In this document: positions 28,507 to 38,038 of the stretch, piece after piece | Position numbering within the stretch: position 1 is the first letter of the stretch | How the letters are laid out: every line of letters starts with the position of its first letter | NCBI GenBank assembly: GCA_964342815.1 | Contig: CAYFHS010000003.1 | Coordinates: forward strand, 64,001 to 128,000 | Direction of reading: 5' to 3' | DNA length: 64,000 nt | Source: an uncultured archaeon | Lineage (GTDB): Archaea > Thermoplasmatota > Penumbrarchaeia > JASLWR01 | The notes under the pieces: model-generated | What the model was told of the DNA's origin: nothing | Database searches by the model: none | Seen by the model: only the letters and a program-made list of their open reading frames with translations | Made by a program: the position numbers and the translations under genes

Positions 28507-31317
28507 TTGAGCATTAAACTATCCGGCAAGGAGAAGATCCTGCTGTGGCTTTTGAGGTTCGTCCCGAGGAAGGGAGATTACATTCAACCCCTGGAAGTAT
28601 CGCAAAAGGGAATCTCCAAGGGTCTAAACATTCTACAGACCAACGTTTCCAGAGAGCTGTCGTCACTGCGGAAGGAAGGATTAATAGATCGGGAATCGAC
28701 CCATTTCCGGGGGACAAAACGGAAAATGACCGCATACTACCTCAGGCCGGATGGCATGAATGTGACAGGGGAGATCACAAAAAAAGTGAACGAGTCAGTG
28801 GTTTCCTTTCGCCTTAAGGGAAAAATTGAGGAAATGCAGGTCTCGAGGATCAGATCGTTACTCAAGGAAAAAGGAGGGAGGCCGTCGGTTTTTGCTGTTG
28901 CAACATGTTTTGAAAATATGGAAACCGTCATTACCCTGCATGAAATGATGGAAAGAATATCCATCATTCAGCGACCCGTCGAACAGACGAGGGAAGTGAG
29001 GAAAGAACACCGCCGCCACCTGGATGGAATTATCGCCGAGGGCGAATTCATCGGTCGAAAGAATGTTACTGATAATATCAAGGAAATATTGGTTAAACCC
29101 GGTTTCCAGGCGATAGGGATCATGGGTGTCGCCGGAATGGGCAAGAGCGCCCTGGGCCGCGAGGTGATAAAATACGCAAAGGGCGATTTCAATATATTCT
29201 ATTATCGTTTTCGCAGGTGGGATCGTTTCGATTCGCTGGGAGTAGAGGTTCTGGGCTATCTTGGAAAAAAGGGTATGCCGGATGGAGACCGCTTGATCCG
29301 ATCGCTAATTGATTTCTGTTCCGGAAACAACTTATTGATGGTACTTGACGATGTACATTTAGTTAAAGATGACATGTATGATTTCCTCGATGATCTTGTC
29401 GTCTACTCGGACAGGCTTTGCGGAATGAAACTCATTTTACTGTCCAGGAAAAAAGGGCAGATGGAGAGATACACTTCCGCCAAACACGGAGGGAAGACCA
29501 CGGAGATAATACTGGAACCTTTTAAAGCTGCGGAGTGCAGTGAACTGGCCTCCCTCGTCGGTTACGGGGAACGAGGAATGGTGGACCGGGAGACCGCAGA
29601 AAAGATACGGGATGCCACCGGGGGTATCCCGCTTCTTGTGGAACTGCTCCACAGGGAGGAGATCGTGACGGGAAAGATCACCACCAAAGGTACTGGGATG
29701 ATAGAAAAAGAGATATTGAAGAACATGGAAGAAAAAAGTGCCGTAATATTGAAGATGTTCTCGCTCTGCACGCTTCCTGTTGAAAAAGACCTAATGAAGA
29801 ACAGCGAGATATACGTGTCTGAGTTGACGGAGCGGCTTCTTCTCGAGAGAACTACCGAAGGACTATATCAGGTGCACGACCATATCAGGGACGTGATCCG
29901 AAAGGAGTTGGGTTTCAGAGAAAGAAAGAAGCTTACCAAGAGCATAATAGAATACCTCAAGGATGTACTGAAAAGGAGTGCGGAGGGAGATTATCTCCCA
30001 ATCCCCATGAGAGAAGACCTTGAGTTATATTTTCTTGAGTACATTCACCATAACATAGAAATTGGCGAGATCGAAAAGGGTCTAAGAGCCATCAACGAAA
30101 TGCCTGATAGGATAACGGATAGTCCGTTCCAAGAGGTTCTCGGGGAATTTCTTCGCCGCATGGAATTAAAATTGGGCGGGAAAAACGCCGTGATCGAGCT
30201 ATTGCGTACCGAGATGGCTCTCGATAGGGACGATATAGAGGGAGCAAGAGAGCATTACAAAACAGCCAGGGAAGTGCATCAATCGGAGCAGAAGAAGAGA
30301 ATTGGGGGGGATAAAGGAATCTTCTTGACCGATGAAGATCTTCAGCAGGTAGCAGTGCGGATGGAGCTTATCGATAAAGGACCGGGTAAACTGAAATCAA
30401 TGTTGGAAAAGGCAGAACATGACGGCAGTCTTGCAGACAAGGTTCGTATCGGCATGGCCATCGCTTCAGAATTTGCTCGTGCAAATGAAAAACGGAAGGC
30501 CGAGAAATGGCTTATGAAGACCGCTGATACGATTGTCGAGCTTCCGGCTGAAAAGAGGGCGGGATTCCATTTCCAGGCAGGCGTCATATACAACAAGTTA
30601 AATGACATGGAGGAAGCAGAGCGCTCCACCAGGGAAGGATTGAAGACGGTATCGGCCGATGACAGCGGCATGCAGGGATCTCTAAACAAACTGCTGGGTC
30701 AGATCCATTTCCGCAAGGGAAACTACGGTAAGGGCGAGGAAAAGTTCAATCGTGCTAAGATGTTTTTCAGACGGACCGATTCGATTTTCCAGCAGGCCGA
30801 TTCTATGCTATGGGAAGTGAAATCCATACTCGCCCGCTCAGGGATTCTCACGAAAGCAATGACCATCTCCTTCCTTGATAGGGAGCGATCTTCCAGAAAG
30901 ACCCGAAGCGCAATTGACGACTGCATCACCCGGATCAGGGAGGCACTTCTGATACTGGGAGGCAGTACAAGGAAGACAGGAGCGCTGTCGAGGTTGCTGG
31001 GAAGGGAGATTTTCGATGAACGTAACGTGTCGCTCTGGCGGCAGCTCCTGGTTTTACGGGGTTCTCTCGAATGGCTCGGGGCTTACACCGAATTCGCTGC
31101 GGAAACAGCTGGCGACATCATCCTACTGGGGAAAAAAACCAGAAAAACGGATATAGTACTGGAAGGGTCGATAATAAAGGCCAGGATACTTTCGCAGATG
31201 AAACGAAAGAAGGAGGCCCGGAGCATACTAGAAGAACTTATGAGCAAGAAAACGATCCCGGACGGTCCCAAAAGAAACGCTTTGAGTTATACGCTGCGTC
31301 TCATTAAGAAAAAGTAA
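28507..31317 (+). CDS. STAND-like NTPase: winged helix + P-loop ATPase + TPR repeats
   Basis: SQKGISKGL...VSREL..L...GLI HTH, FIGR, GVAGMGKS Walker A, LMVLDDVH Walker B, GGIPLLV, helical repeats. Confidence 0.8.
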   Translation: MSIKLSGKEKILLWLLRFVPRKGDYIQPLEVSQKGISKGLNILQTNVSRELSSLRKEGLIDRESTHFRGTKRKMTAYYLRPDGMNVTGEITKKVNESVVSFRLKGKIEEMQVSRIRSLLKEKGGRPSVFAVATCFENMETVITLHEMMERISIIQRPVEQTREVRKEHRRHLDGIIAEGEFIGRKNVTDNIKEILVKPGFQAIGIMGVAGMGKSALGREVIKYAKGDFNIFYYRFRRWDRFDSLGVEVLGYLGKKGMPDGDRLIRSLIDFCSGNNLLMVLDDVHLVKDDMYDFLDDLVVYSDRLCGMKLILLSRKKGQMERYTSAKHGGKTTEIILEPFKAAECSELASLVGYGERGMVDRETAEKIRDATGGIPLLVELLHREEIVTGKITTKGTGMIEKEILKNMEEKSAVILKMFSLCTLPVEKDLMKNSEIYVSELTERLLLERTTEGLYQVHDHIRDVIRKELGFRERKKLTKSIIEYLKDVLKRSAEGDYLPIPMREDLELYFLEYIHHNIEIGEIEKGLRAINEMPDRITDSPFQEVLGEFLRRMELKLGGKNAVIELLRTEMALDRDDIEGAREHYKTAREVHQSEQKKRIGGDKGIFLTDEDLQQVAVRMELIDKGPGKLKSMLEKAEHDGSLADKVRIGMAIASEFARANEKRKAEKWLMKTADTIVELPAEKRAGFHFQAGVIYNKLNDMEEAERSTREGLKTVSADDSGMQGSLNKLLGQIHFRKGNYGKGEEKFNRAKMFFRRTDSIFQQADSMLWEVKSILARSGILTKAMTISFLDRERSSRKTRSAIDDCITRIREALLILGGSTRKTGALSRLLGREIFDERNVSLWRQLLVLRGSLEWLGAYTEFAAETAGDIILLGKKTRKTDIVLEGSIIKARILSQMKRKKEARSILEELMSKKTIPDGPKRNALSYTLRLIKKK

Positions 31318-33310: not shown

Positions 33311-34609
33311 ATGAGCAAAAAGAGGGTGAAACTGAATCTCGGCTGTGGCATAGTCTACAGGCCAGGATACATCAACGTGGATAAGTTCGATAAAAGGGTG
33401 GCCGATGAATTCGGGGATGCGATCTCGCTTCCTTATAAATCATCCATTGCAGATCTTATCGAGGCTATTCACTTACTCGAACATTTCGATCACATTCATT
33501 CTATTTATGCATTAAGCGAATGGCTCAGGGTACTTCGCCCAGGGGGAAAATTGATAATTGAAACCCCTGATCTGGAACTTTCGGTAAAAAAGATCAAGGC
33601 CAATGACAGTTCCGGGCAAGACTCCACTTTAAGGTGGATATTTGGTACAGGTAGCTCCGGAATGAGTCATGGAACAGGATTTTCTTATAAATCATTGAAA
33701 ACCACTCTTGAGGAGATCGGTTTTACCGGTGTTACCAGGAAAGAACAAAACACGCACAAATATGAACCGGGGATGCGTATGGAATGCATTAAACCGACGA
33801 AAAAGGACAACGAGTACATTTTTTCAATGTTCCGAGCAAGGATACTGAAAGGTGAGTCTGATTACGATTCGGAGATGCTGGATTCTCTGGAGGAACACTG
33901 CCTTCATGAGATAAGAAAATCTTTCATCGAAAAAGGTAATGGAACACTTGCGGTGGCGGTTGCGAAATTGGCCGTATGCATCCCGGAAATTTCACGGGTA
34001 TTTCTTGATACCTGTCATAAGTTTGAGCTAATTGAGAATGAAGGTTGTGCCCGGATTAGGAACTTACTAAATTATCTGATCGAGATCGATTTTCACAAGA
34101 AATTACTTCCATTATGGGAAAAGGCAAAAAAGAAATTGGGTAATGCTGACAAAGATTTTCGTCAATTTCTCAGGCGAATAGAGGACCTTATAGCGAAATT
34201 GGCTAGGGAAAAAATCAGTTACAGAGAAAGACTTTCTTATATATCTAATCTCAAAGCATCCGACATTCCCATGTTCAATTTCTATTACGTTCAACTGGAG
34301 GCAAGGATACTATTCAACAAAGGCGTGAAATGCTTCGACCAAAAAAAATACTCAGAAGCGACGGTACTATTCGAAAGGTCCGCGAAAATCAATCCTGAAA
34401 ATTTCTTATTGTACTGGAACCTGGCAAGATTGGGTGCGATCATGTCGAAAAAGGACTTCTGTATTTCTGATAATTACAACAAAGCTTCTCTGTTGATTTC
34501 AGATAATAAGATTAGAAAAATATTGGAGGACGAGAAGAAATCCTTCGAGAACCATGGGGGGAAAAGCGTACCGCGTGGGCCACAATCGGAATTTTCGGTT
34601 CAAGTTTAA
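33311..34609 (+). CDS. Class I SAM-dependent methyltransferase with C-terminal TPR-like region
   Basis: KLNLGCG, HLLEHF, EWLRVLRPGG.L.IETPD; C-terminal LFNKG...A..LFERSAKINP.N TPR. Confidence 0.8.
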   Translation: MSKKRVKLNLGCGIVYRPGYINVDKFDKRVADEFGDAISLPYKSSIADLIEAIHLLEHFDHIHSIYALSEWLRVLRPGGKLIIETPDLELSVKKIKANDSSGQDSTLRWIFGTGSSGMSHGTGFSYKSLKTTLEEIGFTGVTRKEQNTHKYEPGMRMECIKPTKKDNEYIFSMFRARILKGESDYDSEMLDSLEEHCLHEIRKSFIEKGNGTLAVAVAKLAVCIPEISRVFLDTCHKFELIENEGCARIRNLLNYLIEIDFHKKLLPLWEKAKKKLGNADKDFRQFLRRIEDLIAKLAREKISYRERLSYISNLKASDIPMFNFYYVQLEARILFNKGVKCFDQKKYSEATVLFERSAKINPENFLLYWNLARLGAIMSKKDFCISDNYNKASLLISDNKIRKILEDEKKSFENHGGKSVPRGPQSEFSVQV

Positions 34610-34713: not shown

Positions 34714-35190
34714 ATGATAAAAAACAGATTGAGCGATATCGGTGGGAAATTGAACGTCAGCTTGGAGGATATAAGGGGCATGAAGGGCGAACGTCGTAAA
34801 AAGAAATATTTATATCCGTTTCTTCTCGCGGTAGTTGGGGGAATTGCAGCTCTAATGGGCTGTTTGAAAAGTGGAAACGGCGGTGGTGGGGGCGGTAATG
34901 GAACGGTGGTGAATGAAACCATAAATACTGAAAATAATTCCGGGACTTATCCGTACATGATCCCGTCATTCATCGGTATTATGGGGGTGGGAATGGTTTT
35001 CAGGGCCAATAAATACCGGAAAAAGCAGTTGATACTCGTTTTATCGGCAGTAGCGATACTGATTATCGGTATTTTACTGCTCTTTAATGGATCCGATTTG
35101 GTTGAAGCCGCAGAAAATCTTGTCAGGAACGGTAATGAAACCGGGAACTTCAGCGAGGCAGTGGATTACGGAGTTTATTCTAGGAAGTAA
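34714..35190 (+). CDS. Array member A: small 3-TM membrane protein with YPY and C-terminal YGVYS motif
   Basis: GGAGGTG SD; N-terminal L.DIGGKL.VS.EDI; GTYPYMIP; ends DYGVYSRK. Confidence 0.85.
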   Translation: MIKNRLSDIGGKLNVSLEDIRGMKGERRKKKYLYPFLLAVVGGIAALMGCLKSGNGGGGGGNGTVVNETINTENNSGTYPYMIPSFIGIMGVGMVFRANKYRKKQLILVLSAVAILIIGILLLFNGSDLVEAAENLVRNGNETGNFSEAVDYGVYSRK

Positions 35191-35195
35191 AATAA

Positions 35196-35588
35196 ATGGA
35201 TAATGGAAAGCTGAATGAGATTGGGATGAAACTTGAAGTCTCGGAAGAAGACATAATACAATTAAAAAGAAGATACCTACTGATAAAGATATTATGCCCA
35301 ATTATCGGTTTATTAATTTCAATGTTTATTCCAATGACGATAGATTCAGTGACATCCACATATAATCACCAGAATAATTCTTCGTACCCTTACGCAATTC
35401 CGTTTTTGCTTTTTGTGGGAACCGGAAGTTTGGAATCACCCGATAAAATAAAACGAAGGGGTAAAATTATAATTCTTATTACTGCAATCATTACTTTATT
35501 TCTTTCGATAATGATATGGAAGGAGGGTTCCTTTCGAGTATCATCATTGTATGGTGTTTTTTCAAGTAAAAAATTGAAGATCAGATGA
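35196..35588 (+). CDS. Array member B: small membrane protein with YPY and YGVFS motif
   Basis: KLNEIGMKLEVSEEDI; SSYPYAIP; LYGVFSS. Confidence 0.85.
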   Translation: MDNGKLNEIGMKLEVSEEDIIQLKRRYLLIKILCPIIGLLISMFIPMTIDSVTSTYNHQNNSSYPYAIPFLLFVGTGSLESPDKIKRRGKIIILITAIITLFLSIMIWKEGSFRVSSLYGVFSSKKLKIR

Positions 35589-35638
35589 TAAAAGCAACAG
35601 AGAGATATGAGTTATGCATTCAAAGGAACGGTAGGTTC

Positions 35639-36097
35639 ATGGACAAAGGAAAACTGAATGAGATCGGCGGGAAATTGGATGTCAGAATTGAGGATATACG
35701 GGGGATGAAGGATGAGCGTCGTAAAAAAAAATATCTCTATCCGTTCCTTCTTGCTGTGGTGGGAGGTATTGCAGCACTTATGGGTTGTTTGAAGAGTGGA
35801 AACGGCAGTGGAAATGAAGCTTCGGCGAATAATACTACCGGGACTTATCCATACATAATCCCGTCCTTCATTGGTATAATGGGTGTGGGAATGGTCTTTC
35901 GGATCAATAAAAACCGAAAAAAGCATTTGATACTCGTTTTATCGGCAGTGGCGATGTTAATTACCGGTATTTTTCTGCTCTTTAAAGGATCCGGTTTGGT
36001 GGAGGCAGCAGAAGATGTTGTCAGAAACGGAAATGATTCCGGGAATTTCAATGGTTCGATAATTTACGCAGCATATTCATTGGAGCAAAATACATGA
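35639..36097 (+). CDS. Array member C: near-duplicate of member A, tail YAAYS
   Basis: MDKGKLNEIGGKLDVRIEDI (start set to ATG 35639); shares KKKYLYPFLLAVVGGIAALMGCLKSGNG with A; GTYPYIIP; IYAAYSLE. Confidence 0.85.
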   Translation: MDKGKLNEIGGKLDVRIEDIRGMKDERRKKKYLYPFLLAVVGGIAALMGCLKSGNGSGNEASANNTTGTYPYIIPSFIGIMGVGMVFRINKNRKKHLILVLSAVAMLITGIFLLFKGSGLVEAAEDVVRNGNDSGNFNGSIIYAAYSLEQNT

Positions 36098-36513
36098 ACG
36101 AAGATAAGCTAAATGAGATATGCAAGAAATTGGATTTGCCCCAAGAGGACCTATCGAAAATAAAACGGCAATACCTTACTGTAAAAATTGTATCGCCCTT
36201 TATTGGAATTTTCATCACAGCGCTCGCCACTCTCGGGGGATATTTAATGGGGAAAAATGCCCACACGAAGCTCGTCAATAGAGAGACCGGCTCTGTATAT
36301 CCCTATGTAGTACCATCTTTGTTTTTACTGGGCAGTACCTTTAATACCTCAAAAAAATCCATCATCAGAAAACGGAACTTGATTCTCATTTTCGCTGCCG
36401 TTTTGACGACCATTCTATCAGTTATCGCGTATACCGTTGCATTTGATGCGGGACAACCCGTGGAATATTACAGCGGTTCCATAATGTATGGTGTGTATTC
36501 AAGAGAACAGTAG
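36094..36513 (+). CDS. Array member D: small membrane protein with YPY and YGVYS motif
   Basis: MNEDKLNEICKKLDL; VNRETGSVYPYVVP; EYYSGSIMYGVYSREQ; ATGA overlap with C. Confidence 0.85.
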   Translation: MNEDKLNEICKKLDLPQEDLSKIKRQYLTVKIVSPFIGIFITALATLGGYLMGKNAHTKLVNRETGSVYPYVVPSLFLLGSTFNTSKKSIIRKRNLILIFAAVLTTILSVIAYTVAFDAGQPVEYYSGSIMYGVYSREQ

Positions 36514-36640: not shown

Positions 36641-38038
36641 ATGAAAAAACGTGTAACGGTTGTCGTTCTCGGTCACGTGGATCACGGTAAGTCAACCCTA
36701 GTGGGACGCTTTCTGTTCGAAAAAGGCGCGGTCCCCCCCGAAGAGATCGAGCGCTACGCCGTCCTGGGGGCCAAGACGGGAAAGACCAGCTTCAAGTATG
36801 CCTGGGTCATGGACCGAGGCGACGAGGCACGAAGGCGAGGGCTCACTCTGGACCTCAATTTCGCCGACGTGGAGACACGAAAAAGAGAAATACATATCAT
36901 CGACGCACCGGGTCACAAGAGCTTCTTGAAAAGCATGATAACCGGTACCACCGGCGCCGACGCCGCACTCCTGGTGGTGGATTCCCAGGAAGGCATAATG
37001 CCCCAGACCAGGGAACATGCCCAGCTCGCAAAGCTCATGGGTATCCATCACTGCGTTGTAGTCCTCAACAAGATTGACAAGGTGGGTTACAACCCAGAGG
37101 CGATAGGACGCTCCGCCTCCGAACTTAGAGATATGCTGATAGACCTGGGAATTCCAAAAGTTGACGTAATCCCGGTTTCGGCATGGGAGGGCCAAAACCT
37201 CACTTTGCGCGGGGACGCCATGTCCTGGTACAACGGCCGAACGCTAGAAGAGGTGCTGGACAACCTGGAACAGAAGGGAACACCTGCGGGGGGTCCGTTC
37301 CGGATGCCGGTCATGCAGGTGATGAAGATAGGGGGTGTTGGGATCGTGGCGCTGGGGCGGGTGGAGAGCGGGGAGATATCGAAAGGCGACGAGGTGATCG
37401 TAGCCCCAGGAAATAAGATAGGAGTGGCAAAGTCCATAGAGGCCTACGGAAAGAAAATACAGAAGGCCGTGGCCGGTGAGACCGTAGGAATTGCACTTCG
37501 AAACATCGGTCGTTCGGATATTAGCAGGGGGGACGTGCTGGGGCCCGTGGACGATCCGCCGCGCCCCGTTGAGGAGTTCACGGTAAAGATGGTCCTTTTC
37601 GGCGATGCGGGCGTGGTGAAGGTGGGCTGGTCGCCCTATATTCACTGCCATACCGCAGCAGTACCAGTGAAGATCGTTGCCATAGAAATGAAGTACCGGC
37701 CCGACAGCGGCGAGGCCGAGGGAGAGGCGGATGCGGGATTCCTGGTAAAGGGTGACGCGGCGCTGGTTCGTTTCAGGCCGTTGAAGCCGCTGATCATAGA
37801 ATCGGGTGAGAAGTTGCCGGACATGGCACGCTTTGCCCTCAGGGCCGGTAAAACAACCCTTGGTGCCGGGTCCTGCGTCTCCAAACGCGCAGCGGAGGGG
37901 CAGGGGGTGGCAAGGGGCGAACCGAAAAAGAAGGGTTTCTCCTACAAATGGCAAAAAGTAGGAAAGGCAGCGCGTGACCAGAAGCGGCGAAAGAATAAAG
38001 AGAACCTCGACATCTGGGGCAGGCCTATCAGAAAGTAG
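36641..38038 (+). CDS. Divergent elongation factor 1-alpha paralog (translational GTPase) with basic C-terminal extension
   Basis: GHVDHGKSTLVG, RGLTLD, DAPGH, MITG...AD, NKID, SAWEG, GRVESG, HCHTAAV, RFALR, plus a K/R-rich tail of about 50 aa. Confidence 0.88.
   Translation: MKKRVTVVVLGHVDHGKSTLVGRFLFEKGAVPPEEIERYAVLGAKTGKTSFKYAWVMDRGDEARRRGLTLDLNFADVETRKREIHIIDAPGHKSFLKSMITGTTGADAALLVVDSQEGIMPQTREHAQLAKLMGIHHCVVVLNKIDKVGYNPEAIGRSASELRDMLIDLGIPKVDVIPVSAWEGQNLTLRGDAMSWYNGRTLEEVLDNLEQKGTPAGGPFRMPVMQVMKIGGVGIVALGRVESGEISKGDEVIVAPGNKIGVAKSIEAYGKKIQKAVAGETVGIALRNIGRSDISRGDVLGPVDDPPRPVEEFTVKMVLFGDAGVVKVGWSPYIHCHTAAVPVKIVAIEMKYRPDSGEAEGEADAGFLVKGDAALVRFRPLKPLIIESGEKLPDMARFALRAGKTTLGAGSCVSKRAAEGQGVARGEPKKKGFSYKWQKVGKAARDQKRRKNKENLDIWGRPIRK

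Follow-up and report, generated by a model that had tools for sequence, protein, structure and literature searches.

An EF1A-like GTPase subfamily of the Thermoplasmatota with a replaced aminoacyl-end pocket and a conserved basic tail

The window considered here is a stretch of 64,000 nucleotides (nt) from an uncultured archaeon of the Thermoplasmatota (GenBank assembly GCA_964342815.1, contig CAYFHS010000003.1, positions 64,001 to 128,000), in which a gene resembling that of elongation factor 1-alpha (EF-1alpha; aEF1A in Archaea) lies in the middle of a tandem array of genes for YG-tailed membrane proteins, the YG array, ahead of a radical SAM/SPASM gene. This gene, hereafter the paralog, occupies positions 36641-38038 of the forward strand and is an intact open frame of 465 codons, encoding an EF-1alpha-like GTPase of 465 amino acids (aa). 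Our analysis indicates that it is probably a functional member of a small, unnamed subfamily of the EF1 family, a stand-alone protein and not a component of the YG system, which would still act on the ribosome, with an altered cargo. This reading is carried by the separate clade and conserved tail of the family, by the clade-wide replacement of pocket residues that are invariant or nearly so in canonical aEF1A, and by a distribution that does not follow that of the array beyond one genus.

A second EF1A-like protein and its family

By its Pfam architecture, the paralog is a member of the EF1 family of translational GTPases: GTP_EFTU, GTP_EFTU_D2 and GTP_EFTU_D3/GTP-eEF1A_C are matched with 155, 51, 49 and 63 bits, all above the gathering scores, and the AlphaFold2 (AF2) model and the Foldseek comparison are concordant with this assignment. 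The model (predicted local distance difference test, pLDDT, 83) finds its best fold matches in GTP-form aEF1A bound to aPelota (3WXM) and to aRF1 (3VMF), with template modelling (TM) scores of 0.80-0.86, and the modelled fold is that of GTP-form aEF1A. All GTPase motifs are intact, as had been noted in an earlier reading made from the sequence alone (the sequence-only reading): G1 (GHVDHGKS), G2 (Thr69), G3 (DAPGH, with His92), G4 (NKID) and G5 (SAW) are all found, and in alignments the columns of G1-G5, Thr69 and His92 are invariant between the paralog clade and canonical aEF1A. Since canonical aEF1A sequences stop near residue 417, the C-terminal extension, previously put at about 50 aa, comprises about 48 aa, and it is indeed basic and rich in Lys and Arg.

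The paralog is an accessory second copy beside canonical aEF1A. The same assembly carries on another contig (C12) a canonical aEF1A gene, 40% identical to the paralog and flanked by the genes for EF-2 and ribosomal protein S10 in a str-like operon (EF2-EF1A-S10); this slot being filled by the canonical copy, the paralog lies outside the ribosomal operon, as had been supposed, and is not the only EF-1alpha of its genome. Measured against the genome's own canonical copy, the sequence departures pointed out earlier—ERERG to ARRRG, HRDFVKNM to HKSFLKSM and SIEMHH to SIEAYG—are real. Curated profiles likewise set the protein apart, as it scores below both NCBIfam EF-1alpha models (410.4 against a cut-off of 540.1 for the TIGR00483 equivalog, 445.8 against 502 for PRK12317), below the cut-off for EF-Tu, below all CysN cut-offs (228.6 against 336.1 for the CysN model) and below that for SelB (186.6 against 242.25, with only residues 61-311 covered). 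Among solved structures, archaeal aEF1A is matched with 362 bits, followed by eEF1A (284), Hbs1 (218), eRF3 (207), and CysN and EF-Tu (about 160).

Among 5.8 billion protein clusters, the search found about 57 homologs at 51-94% identity, nearly all of 460-485 aa and named in databases either 'GTP-binding protein' (in Thermoplasmatota metagenome-assembled genomes, MAGs) or 'elongation factor 1-alpha'; below them comes a gap, canonical aEF1A being found at no more than 45% identity. In a maximum-likelihood tree of 73 sequences, which include 42 canonical archaeal aEF1A, Escherichia coli CysN and archaeal CysN-like proteins, the paralog clade is monophyletic (support 100 in the Shimodaira-Hasegawa-like approximate likelihood ratio test, SH-aLRT), sits on a stem of 1.14 substitutions per site, and falls outside the 42 canonical aEF1A (support 88); CysN and the archaeal CysN-like proteins are likewise separate from it. 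The earlier description of the protein as a divergent EF-1alpha paralog, for which a phylogeny with aEF1A and CysN had been proposed, is borne out.

All full-length members of the clade carry in their tail the motif F-S-Y-K-x-x-K-x-G-x-x-A...D-I-(W/H)-G-(R/K)-P (aa 433-462, nt 37937-38026), with a basic stretch between its two parts. The tail is predicted to consist of a disordered linker, a basic helix at about 435-454 (pLDDT about 71-76, moderate) and then the conserved end. No Pfam domain and no ESM Atlas look-alike was found for it, and a tail-only profile run against 1.84 billion representative proteins gave ten matches, eight of them within the family (seven fragments) and the other two spurious, covering 14 positions in repetitive proteins. 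In the representative library, the 91-aa protein P0129 carries the family tail motif behind an unrelated N-terminal part, possibly as an artefact of gene calling or of a frameshift, or else as a rare fusion.

The paralog is probably functional and is under purifying selection, the ratio of nonsynonymous to synonymous substitution rates (dN/dS) between the two species of the genus being 0.074, against 0.034 for canonical aEF1A; the corresponding dS values of 0.34 and 0.53 are compatible with co-divergence. Full-text literature searches yielded no description of the paralog family. A survey of archaeal translational GTPases covers aEF1A, aGTPBP, aIF2gamma, aSelB, aSelBL, aEF2 and aIF5B, and no aEF1A paralog (Atkinson 2015, PMC4342817); the 'aEF1A-like' mRNA of PMC11698992, from Saccharolobus, served there as a template for toeprinting, and that paper is silent on the encoded protein. 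The family is thus far an unnamed and undescribed EF1A-like GTPase subfamily of the Thermoplasmatota.

Distribution of the paralog and of the YG array

From its place in the window, the gene had been proposed to be a dedicated factor coupling the translation of the YG substrates to their modification, a self-resistance copy, itself a substrate through the YG dipeptide of SIEAYG, or an unrelated insertion. The first three make it a partner of the YG/radical SAM system, and the local arrangement favours such a partner, as in both species of the genus the paralog lies inside the array, on the same strand and separated from the next YG gene by 15 nt that include no terminator, and all three genomes of the window's family that carry it also have YG genes. 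Its distribution on a larger scale argues otherwise.

Both features were sought in 401 sampled genomes of the phylum, the paralog with a profile of domain III plus tail and the array with a YG-protein profile. The tail-bearing paralog was found in nine genomes, the remaining profile matches being domain III of canonical aEF1A: three belong to the window's family f1 (G000, G001 and G003), one (of five) to g25, one to f13, two (of eight) to g54 and two to g76, and there was no paralog match in G002, a 91% complete genome of the window's family. With nine carriers among 401 genomes and G002 without a copy, the paralog is accessory and patchy. The sister genome within the window's genus bears the label 'Thermoplasmatota archaeon ETNP2_MAG_1'. 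YG proteins occur in 11 of the 401 genomes (three in f1, five in f7, two in f19 and one in f21), and the two distributions overlap in only three genomes, all of family f1, leaving eight array-bearing genomes with no paralog match and six paralog-bearing genomes with no YG match.

Adjacency is restricted even further, to the window's genus g1. In G003 the paralog adjoins an MMPL exporter and a tRNA-Arg gene on contig C99, unlinked from the YG arrays, which are on C76 and C6, and from the radical SAM ortholog on C143. Six metagenomic contigs with family members, inspected over 6-10 kb on each side, showed no YG gene, SPASM enzyme or common neighbour, and no gene neighbourhood is conserved across eight paralog contexts. 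The sole hint of an operon partner comes from two related contigs of one subclade, where a Peptidase_S15 gene (CocE/NonD-type hydrolase) on the same strand ends at or overlaps the start of the paralog (L077:4445-6004, L079:4261-5985).

The recurring partners of the array are other genes. In G018, G019, G046 and G056 a radical SAM ortholog (62-64% identical) lies beside the YG array, with no paralog match in the genome, and in G019 the mid-array gene encodes a methyltransferase-TPR protein (L067:1769-3157, G019:C4) homologous to that of window 33311-34609, just upstream of the YG array. Because the radical SAM gene stands beside the array in these four genomes and the methyltransferase-TPR gene in mid-array in G019, the recurring module is that of the YG genes, the methyltransferase-TPR gene and the radical SAM/SPASM gene. 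The sister species of the window's genus (G001) also has the paralog, 95% identical, within the array, which there is down to two YG genes, one upstream and one downstream (L027:10506-11687, G001:C92), the N-terminal part of the latter matching YG5 and its C-terminal part YG8. The radical SAM gene of G001 is split by a 1-nt deletion into frames of 186 and 115 aa, and the paralog is intact; the frameshift and the array reduction may reflect real decay or an error of MAG assembly. That the paralog is under purifying selection in G001, where the module looks degraded, counts against a partnership.

The substrate hypothesis meets a further difficulty, in that SIEAYG is a trait of one subclade, found irrespective of the array in 30 of about 57 family members; one of these is encoded in G051, where no YG match was obtained, and in the other subclade the motif is SIE(I/V)HG. 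For a self-resistance copy nothing was found in support, and the YG proteins, which span the membrane several times, are not evidently secreted antibiotics. Since occurrence, linkage and the AYG motif do not follow the array beyond the genus, the substrate, dedicated-factor and self-resistance readings find no comparative support: paralog and array are mostly in different genomes, and the proposed co-occurrence of homologues and array fails outside a single genus. A dedicated partnership is in our judgement very improbable, and at the level of the family it is largely refuted. Of the four hypotheses, only an unrelated insertion agrees with the evidence, in the sense of an unrelated gene lying in the array; the mid-array position would be an arrangement of this genus only, in which the gene either was caught in an expanding tandem array or inserted with its own promoter.

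The composition of the gene, seen earlier to be more GC-rich than its flanking array genes, fits either of two histories. Its GC content is 57.4% (67.4% at third codon positions), against 33-49% for the eight YG genes, 45.4% for the genome and 51.7% for canonical aEF1A, placing it at the 99.5th percentile of the 1364 long open reading frames of the genome, and other members of the family sit in DNA of 55-70% GC; so extreme a value is compatible with import from a GC-richer relative as well as with codon selection. The gene also has a TATA-like tract of its own, as previously proposed, and this element, TTTAAAATAA, is conserved as TTTAAATTAA in G001 and weakly in G003. Because the TATA-like box lies only 22-31 nt from the start codon, a leaderless transcript, or one with a very short leader, is suggested for the paralog. 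No terminator-like site was found between the upstream YG gene and the paralog, nor between the paralog and the next YG gene, and read-through from the paralog's promoter into the downstream YG genes is possible in the window's genus.

The coordinates of the paralog, its domains and its context are collected in the table below. Just after the radical SAM gene, the window has a gene for tRNA-Leu(CAA) (41261-41344, reverse strand). As synteny between the two species of the genus holds to the right of this gene and breaks to its left, the array-plus-paralog block may form the margin of a variable island adjoining a tRNA gene. Further to the left, 3 kb upstream of the array region, window 28507-31317 (forward strand) encodes a 936-aa protein with an N-terminal helix-turn-helix, an NB-ARC/AAA STAND NTPase domain and TPR repeats.

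Features of the paralog and its surroundings in the window, with related proteins of other genomes
Feature	Position	Strand	Remarks
TATA-like box TTTAAAATAA	36610..36619	+	22-31 nt before ATG, read directly
G domain, aa 1-215	36641..37285	+	G1-G5, His92, Mg-binding Thr69; Pfam PF00009, E 2e-45
Domain II, aa 216-310, remodelled aminoacyl-end pocket	37286..37570	+	column counts, 25 paralogs against 42 canonical aEF1A
Domain III, aa 311-417, EF-1A C-terminal beta-barrel	37571..37891	+	Pfam PF22594 and PF03143; AF2 confident
Family-specific extension, aa 418-465	37892..38035	+	shared by every full-length member of the clade
Four YG-tailed membrane protein genes upstream (context)	34714..36513	+	last one ends 127 nt before the paralog
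Four further YG genes and radical SAM/SPASM gene (context)	38054..40916	+	first starts 15 nt past the paralog stop
CysN-grouping paralogs of about 410 aa, L090-L096	G004:C66, G027:C115, G013:C13, G024:C22, G023:C61, G007:C40, G006:C230		

The aminoacyl-end pocket and the candidate cargo

Twenty-five paralogs and 42 canonical aEF1A were aligned to E. coli EF-Tu, its residue numbers being checked against the expected letters. We take E215, D216, F218, R262, N273 and L277 of EF-Tu to line the pocket of the aminoacyl end and A76, and K89/N90 to form the 5'-phosphate site. At the equivalents of the first six, canonical aEF1A reads Q, D, Y/F, H, N and N, invariant or nearly so, whereas the paralog has M225, Q226, M228, G270, T281 and A285 and its family M, Q/D, L/M/I, G, T/S and A/G. 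At the K89/N90 equivalents the changes K97R and N98S are clade-specific, the N90 equivalent being invariant or nearly so in the 42 canonical sequences. Altogether, seven pocket or 5'-end positions that are (near-)invariant in canonical aEF1A are replaced throughout the clade. Unchanged and invariant are E267, the equivalent of EF-Tu E259, presumably the A76-stacking Glu, and the equivalent of R288, presumably the Arg of the 5'-phosphate, roles assigned from EF-Tu ternary-complex structures. Of 15 positions fixed in canonical aEF1A and variable in the paralog family, 14 lie in domains II and III, and 23 of the 29 positions fixed in the paralog family only lie in the G domain.

Because pocket residues that do not vary in canonical aEF1A have given way throughout the clade to smaller or more hydrophobic residues, we infer that the paralog would no longer hold an ordinary aminoacyl end. 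It would still cycle on the ribosome; the switch II His is activated in this family by the sarcin-ricin loop of the ribosome. The basic C-terminal helix that it has gained could provide a contact to rRNA, mRNA or tRNA. That the protein delivers, in a GTP-dependent manner, a non-standard cargo to the A site in rescue, quality control or stress is possible, if somewhat short of probable; candidates for the cargo are a tRNA of a particular kind or with an unusual charge, and a protein shaped like a tRNA, for instance aPelota or aRF1, and the parallel would be the splitting of eRF3 and Hbs1 from eEF1A in eukaryotes. A bolder version, which we hold to be rather unlikely, is that this is a first archaeal case of an eRF3/Hbs1-type split, in which aPelota, aRF1 or an unusual tRNA would be brought as special cargo to stalled or special ribosomes, the tail acting as a sensor of rRNA or of the mRNA channel.

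The same residues also bear on a more conservative possibility, namely that the paralog is a spare or alternative elongation factor still delivering ordinary aminoacyl-tRNAs, either an isoform for stress conditions or a copy that escapes a toxin or antibiotic directed at canonical aEF1A. The full EF1A architecture, the intact GTPase centre with its catalytic His and the retained equivalents of the A76-stacking Glu and 5'-phosphate Arg all agree with such a factor, as does an accessory-like occurrence that is patchy even within genera (two of eight in g54, one of five in g25); in addition, EF-Tu copies resistant to pocket-binding thiopeptides have changes in the domain II pocket. However, seven canonical-invariant positions are changed here together, with loss of the aromatic residue and of the N273 equivalent, the 40% identity to the canonical copy and the stem of 1.14 mark a divergence far beyond that of known resistance alleles, and the conserved 48-aa tail has no counterpart in isoforms, so that we regard a spare factor as unlikely, if still a serious rival.

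A role outside translation, as a CysN-like regulatory GTPase subunit of some metabolic enzyme, is quite improbable. It draws on the CysN models being the next-best NCBIfam matches after EF-1alpha (228-243 bits), on CysN-like proteins also having lost the equivalents of EF-Tu N273 and R262, and on the Peptidase_S15 gene overlapping the paralog start in one subclade. Yet the scores stay under all CysN cut-offs, the clade stands apart in the tree from both E. coli CysN and the CysN-like proteins encoded in related archaeal genomes, no CysD (PAPS_reduct) or other recurrent neighbour occurs in eight contexts, and the basic tail would suit nucleic-acid binding better. In several genomes of the window's class there is another EF1A-like paralog, about 410 aa long, which the tree places with E. 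coli CysN (see table); none was found among the EF1A-like matches of the window's genome.

Some specific partners and roles were considered and set aside. Besides aRF1 and aPelota there is a third eRF1-fold gene (G000:C1:28146-29291; L085:1492-2640, minus strand), whose 382-aa product matches Pfam baeRF_family10, eRF1_2, acVLRF1 and eRF1_3, is VLRF1-like, carries the loop KKGGWSQ instead of GGQ, and contains in domain 3 a zinc ribbon, a CxxC...CxxC insert. Its orthologs occur in 87 of the 401 genomes, including nearly all of the window's class and the paralog-less G002, and were not found in five paralog-bearing genomes, and it was rejected as a specific partner. An EF-Pyl was rejected likewise, there being no PylS match above cut-off in five paralog-bearing genomes, and no tRNA gene recurs beside the paralog in nine contexts. 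As for a protein of a defence system, PADLOC gives only a generic GTPase match of 17 bits to LeoA.

Several observations weigh against the view of the paralog as a stand-alone factor of a separate lineage with altered cargo. As to its independence of the array, the paralog may be co-transcribed with YG5-8 and the radical SAM gene, since the next YG gene follows 15 nt downstream with no terminator, and this could amount to a local and recent functional tie within the genus; moreover, all genomes with both features belong to one family, and as the MAGs are 72-97% complete, absences are to be read as 'not found'. As to its origin, an approximately unbiased (AU) test does not reject the union of the paralog clade with Thermoplasmatota aEF1A (p 0.34) and is compatible both with an ancient origin and with accelerated evolution after a duplication within the phylum; long-branch attraction may account for the placement of the clade outside canonical aEF1A, and the tree is one without eukaryotic eEF1A, eRF3 and Hbs1 sequences. 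As to its cargo, tRNA binding as such may persist, because the E259 and R288 equivalents are kept.

A conserved paralog with a remodelled pocket and a private tail offers a testable case of factor specialisation in Archaea, and with it the EF1 family would gain a subfamily. In Archaea, aminoacyl-tRNA, aRF1 and aPelota are considered to share one carrier, aEF1A, and published surveys of translational GTPases record no archaeal paralog of it (PMC4342817); a split of delivery, if true, would break this view of one omnipotent aEF1A for all A-site deliveries wherever a genome has the paralog. As for the YG/radical SAM system, an attractive but deceptive candidate component drops out. The interest of the gene is moderate for the evolution of translation factors and low as a clue to the YG system.

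Comparison with known systems

Archaeal aEF1A (TIGR00483/PRK12317; 3WXM, 3VMF, 3WY9) has the same three domains, G motifs and catalytic His as the paralog, and is its best match both in sequence (362 bits against the PDB aEF1A, 40-45% identity) and in fold. Unlike aEF1A, the paralog scores below the curated cut-offs, lies outside the operon, has its pocket replaced, bears a 48-aa tail and belongs to a separate, long-stemmed clade. CysN/NodQ, the GTPase subunit of ATP sulfurylase, is derived from aEF1A and, like the paralog, has a diverged domain II pocket, but the paralog scores below its cut-offs, has no CysD neighbour and forms a clade of its own.

In thiopeptide and elfamycin producers, cluster-associated resistant EF-Tu copies are encoded by a second gene in or near the biosynthetic locus and have changes in the domain II pocket. 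The paralog differs from such copies in that its family and the locus are mostly apart, in its greater divergence from the housekeeping copy and in its unique tail. Also comparable are aSelBL and aGTPBP, translational GTPase paralogs that are likewise patchy in Archaea and whose cargo is not known (Atkinson 2015, PMC4342817; Atkinson 2011, PMC3037878). The paralog, unlike these members of the SelB and GTPBP groups, resembles EF1A along its entire length, with a match to SelB that is weak and partial, and its tail is a 48-aa basic peptide with no domain match, unlike domain IV of SelB.

Finally, eRF3, Hbs1 and Ski7, carriers of eRF1 or Dom34, are derived from EF1A, have kept the GTPase centre, have given up the carriage of aminoacyl-tRNA and have a terminal extension. 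The paralog matches them more weakly than it does aEF1A (Hbs1 218 bits, eRF3 207 bits), and its extension is short and C-terminal whereas theirs are N-terminal. In Archaea, the jobs of eRF3 and Hbs1 are attributed to aEF1A itself (Atkinson 2015, PMC4342817), and a specialised archaeal paralog would, by analogy, be the counterpart of eRF3, Hbs1 and Ski7.

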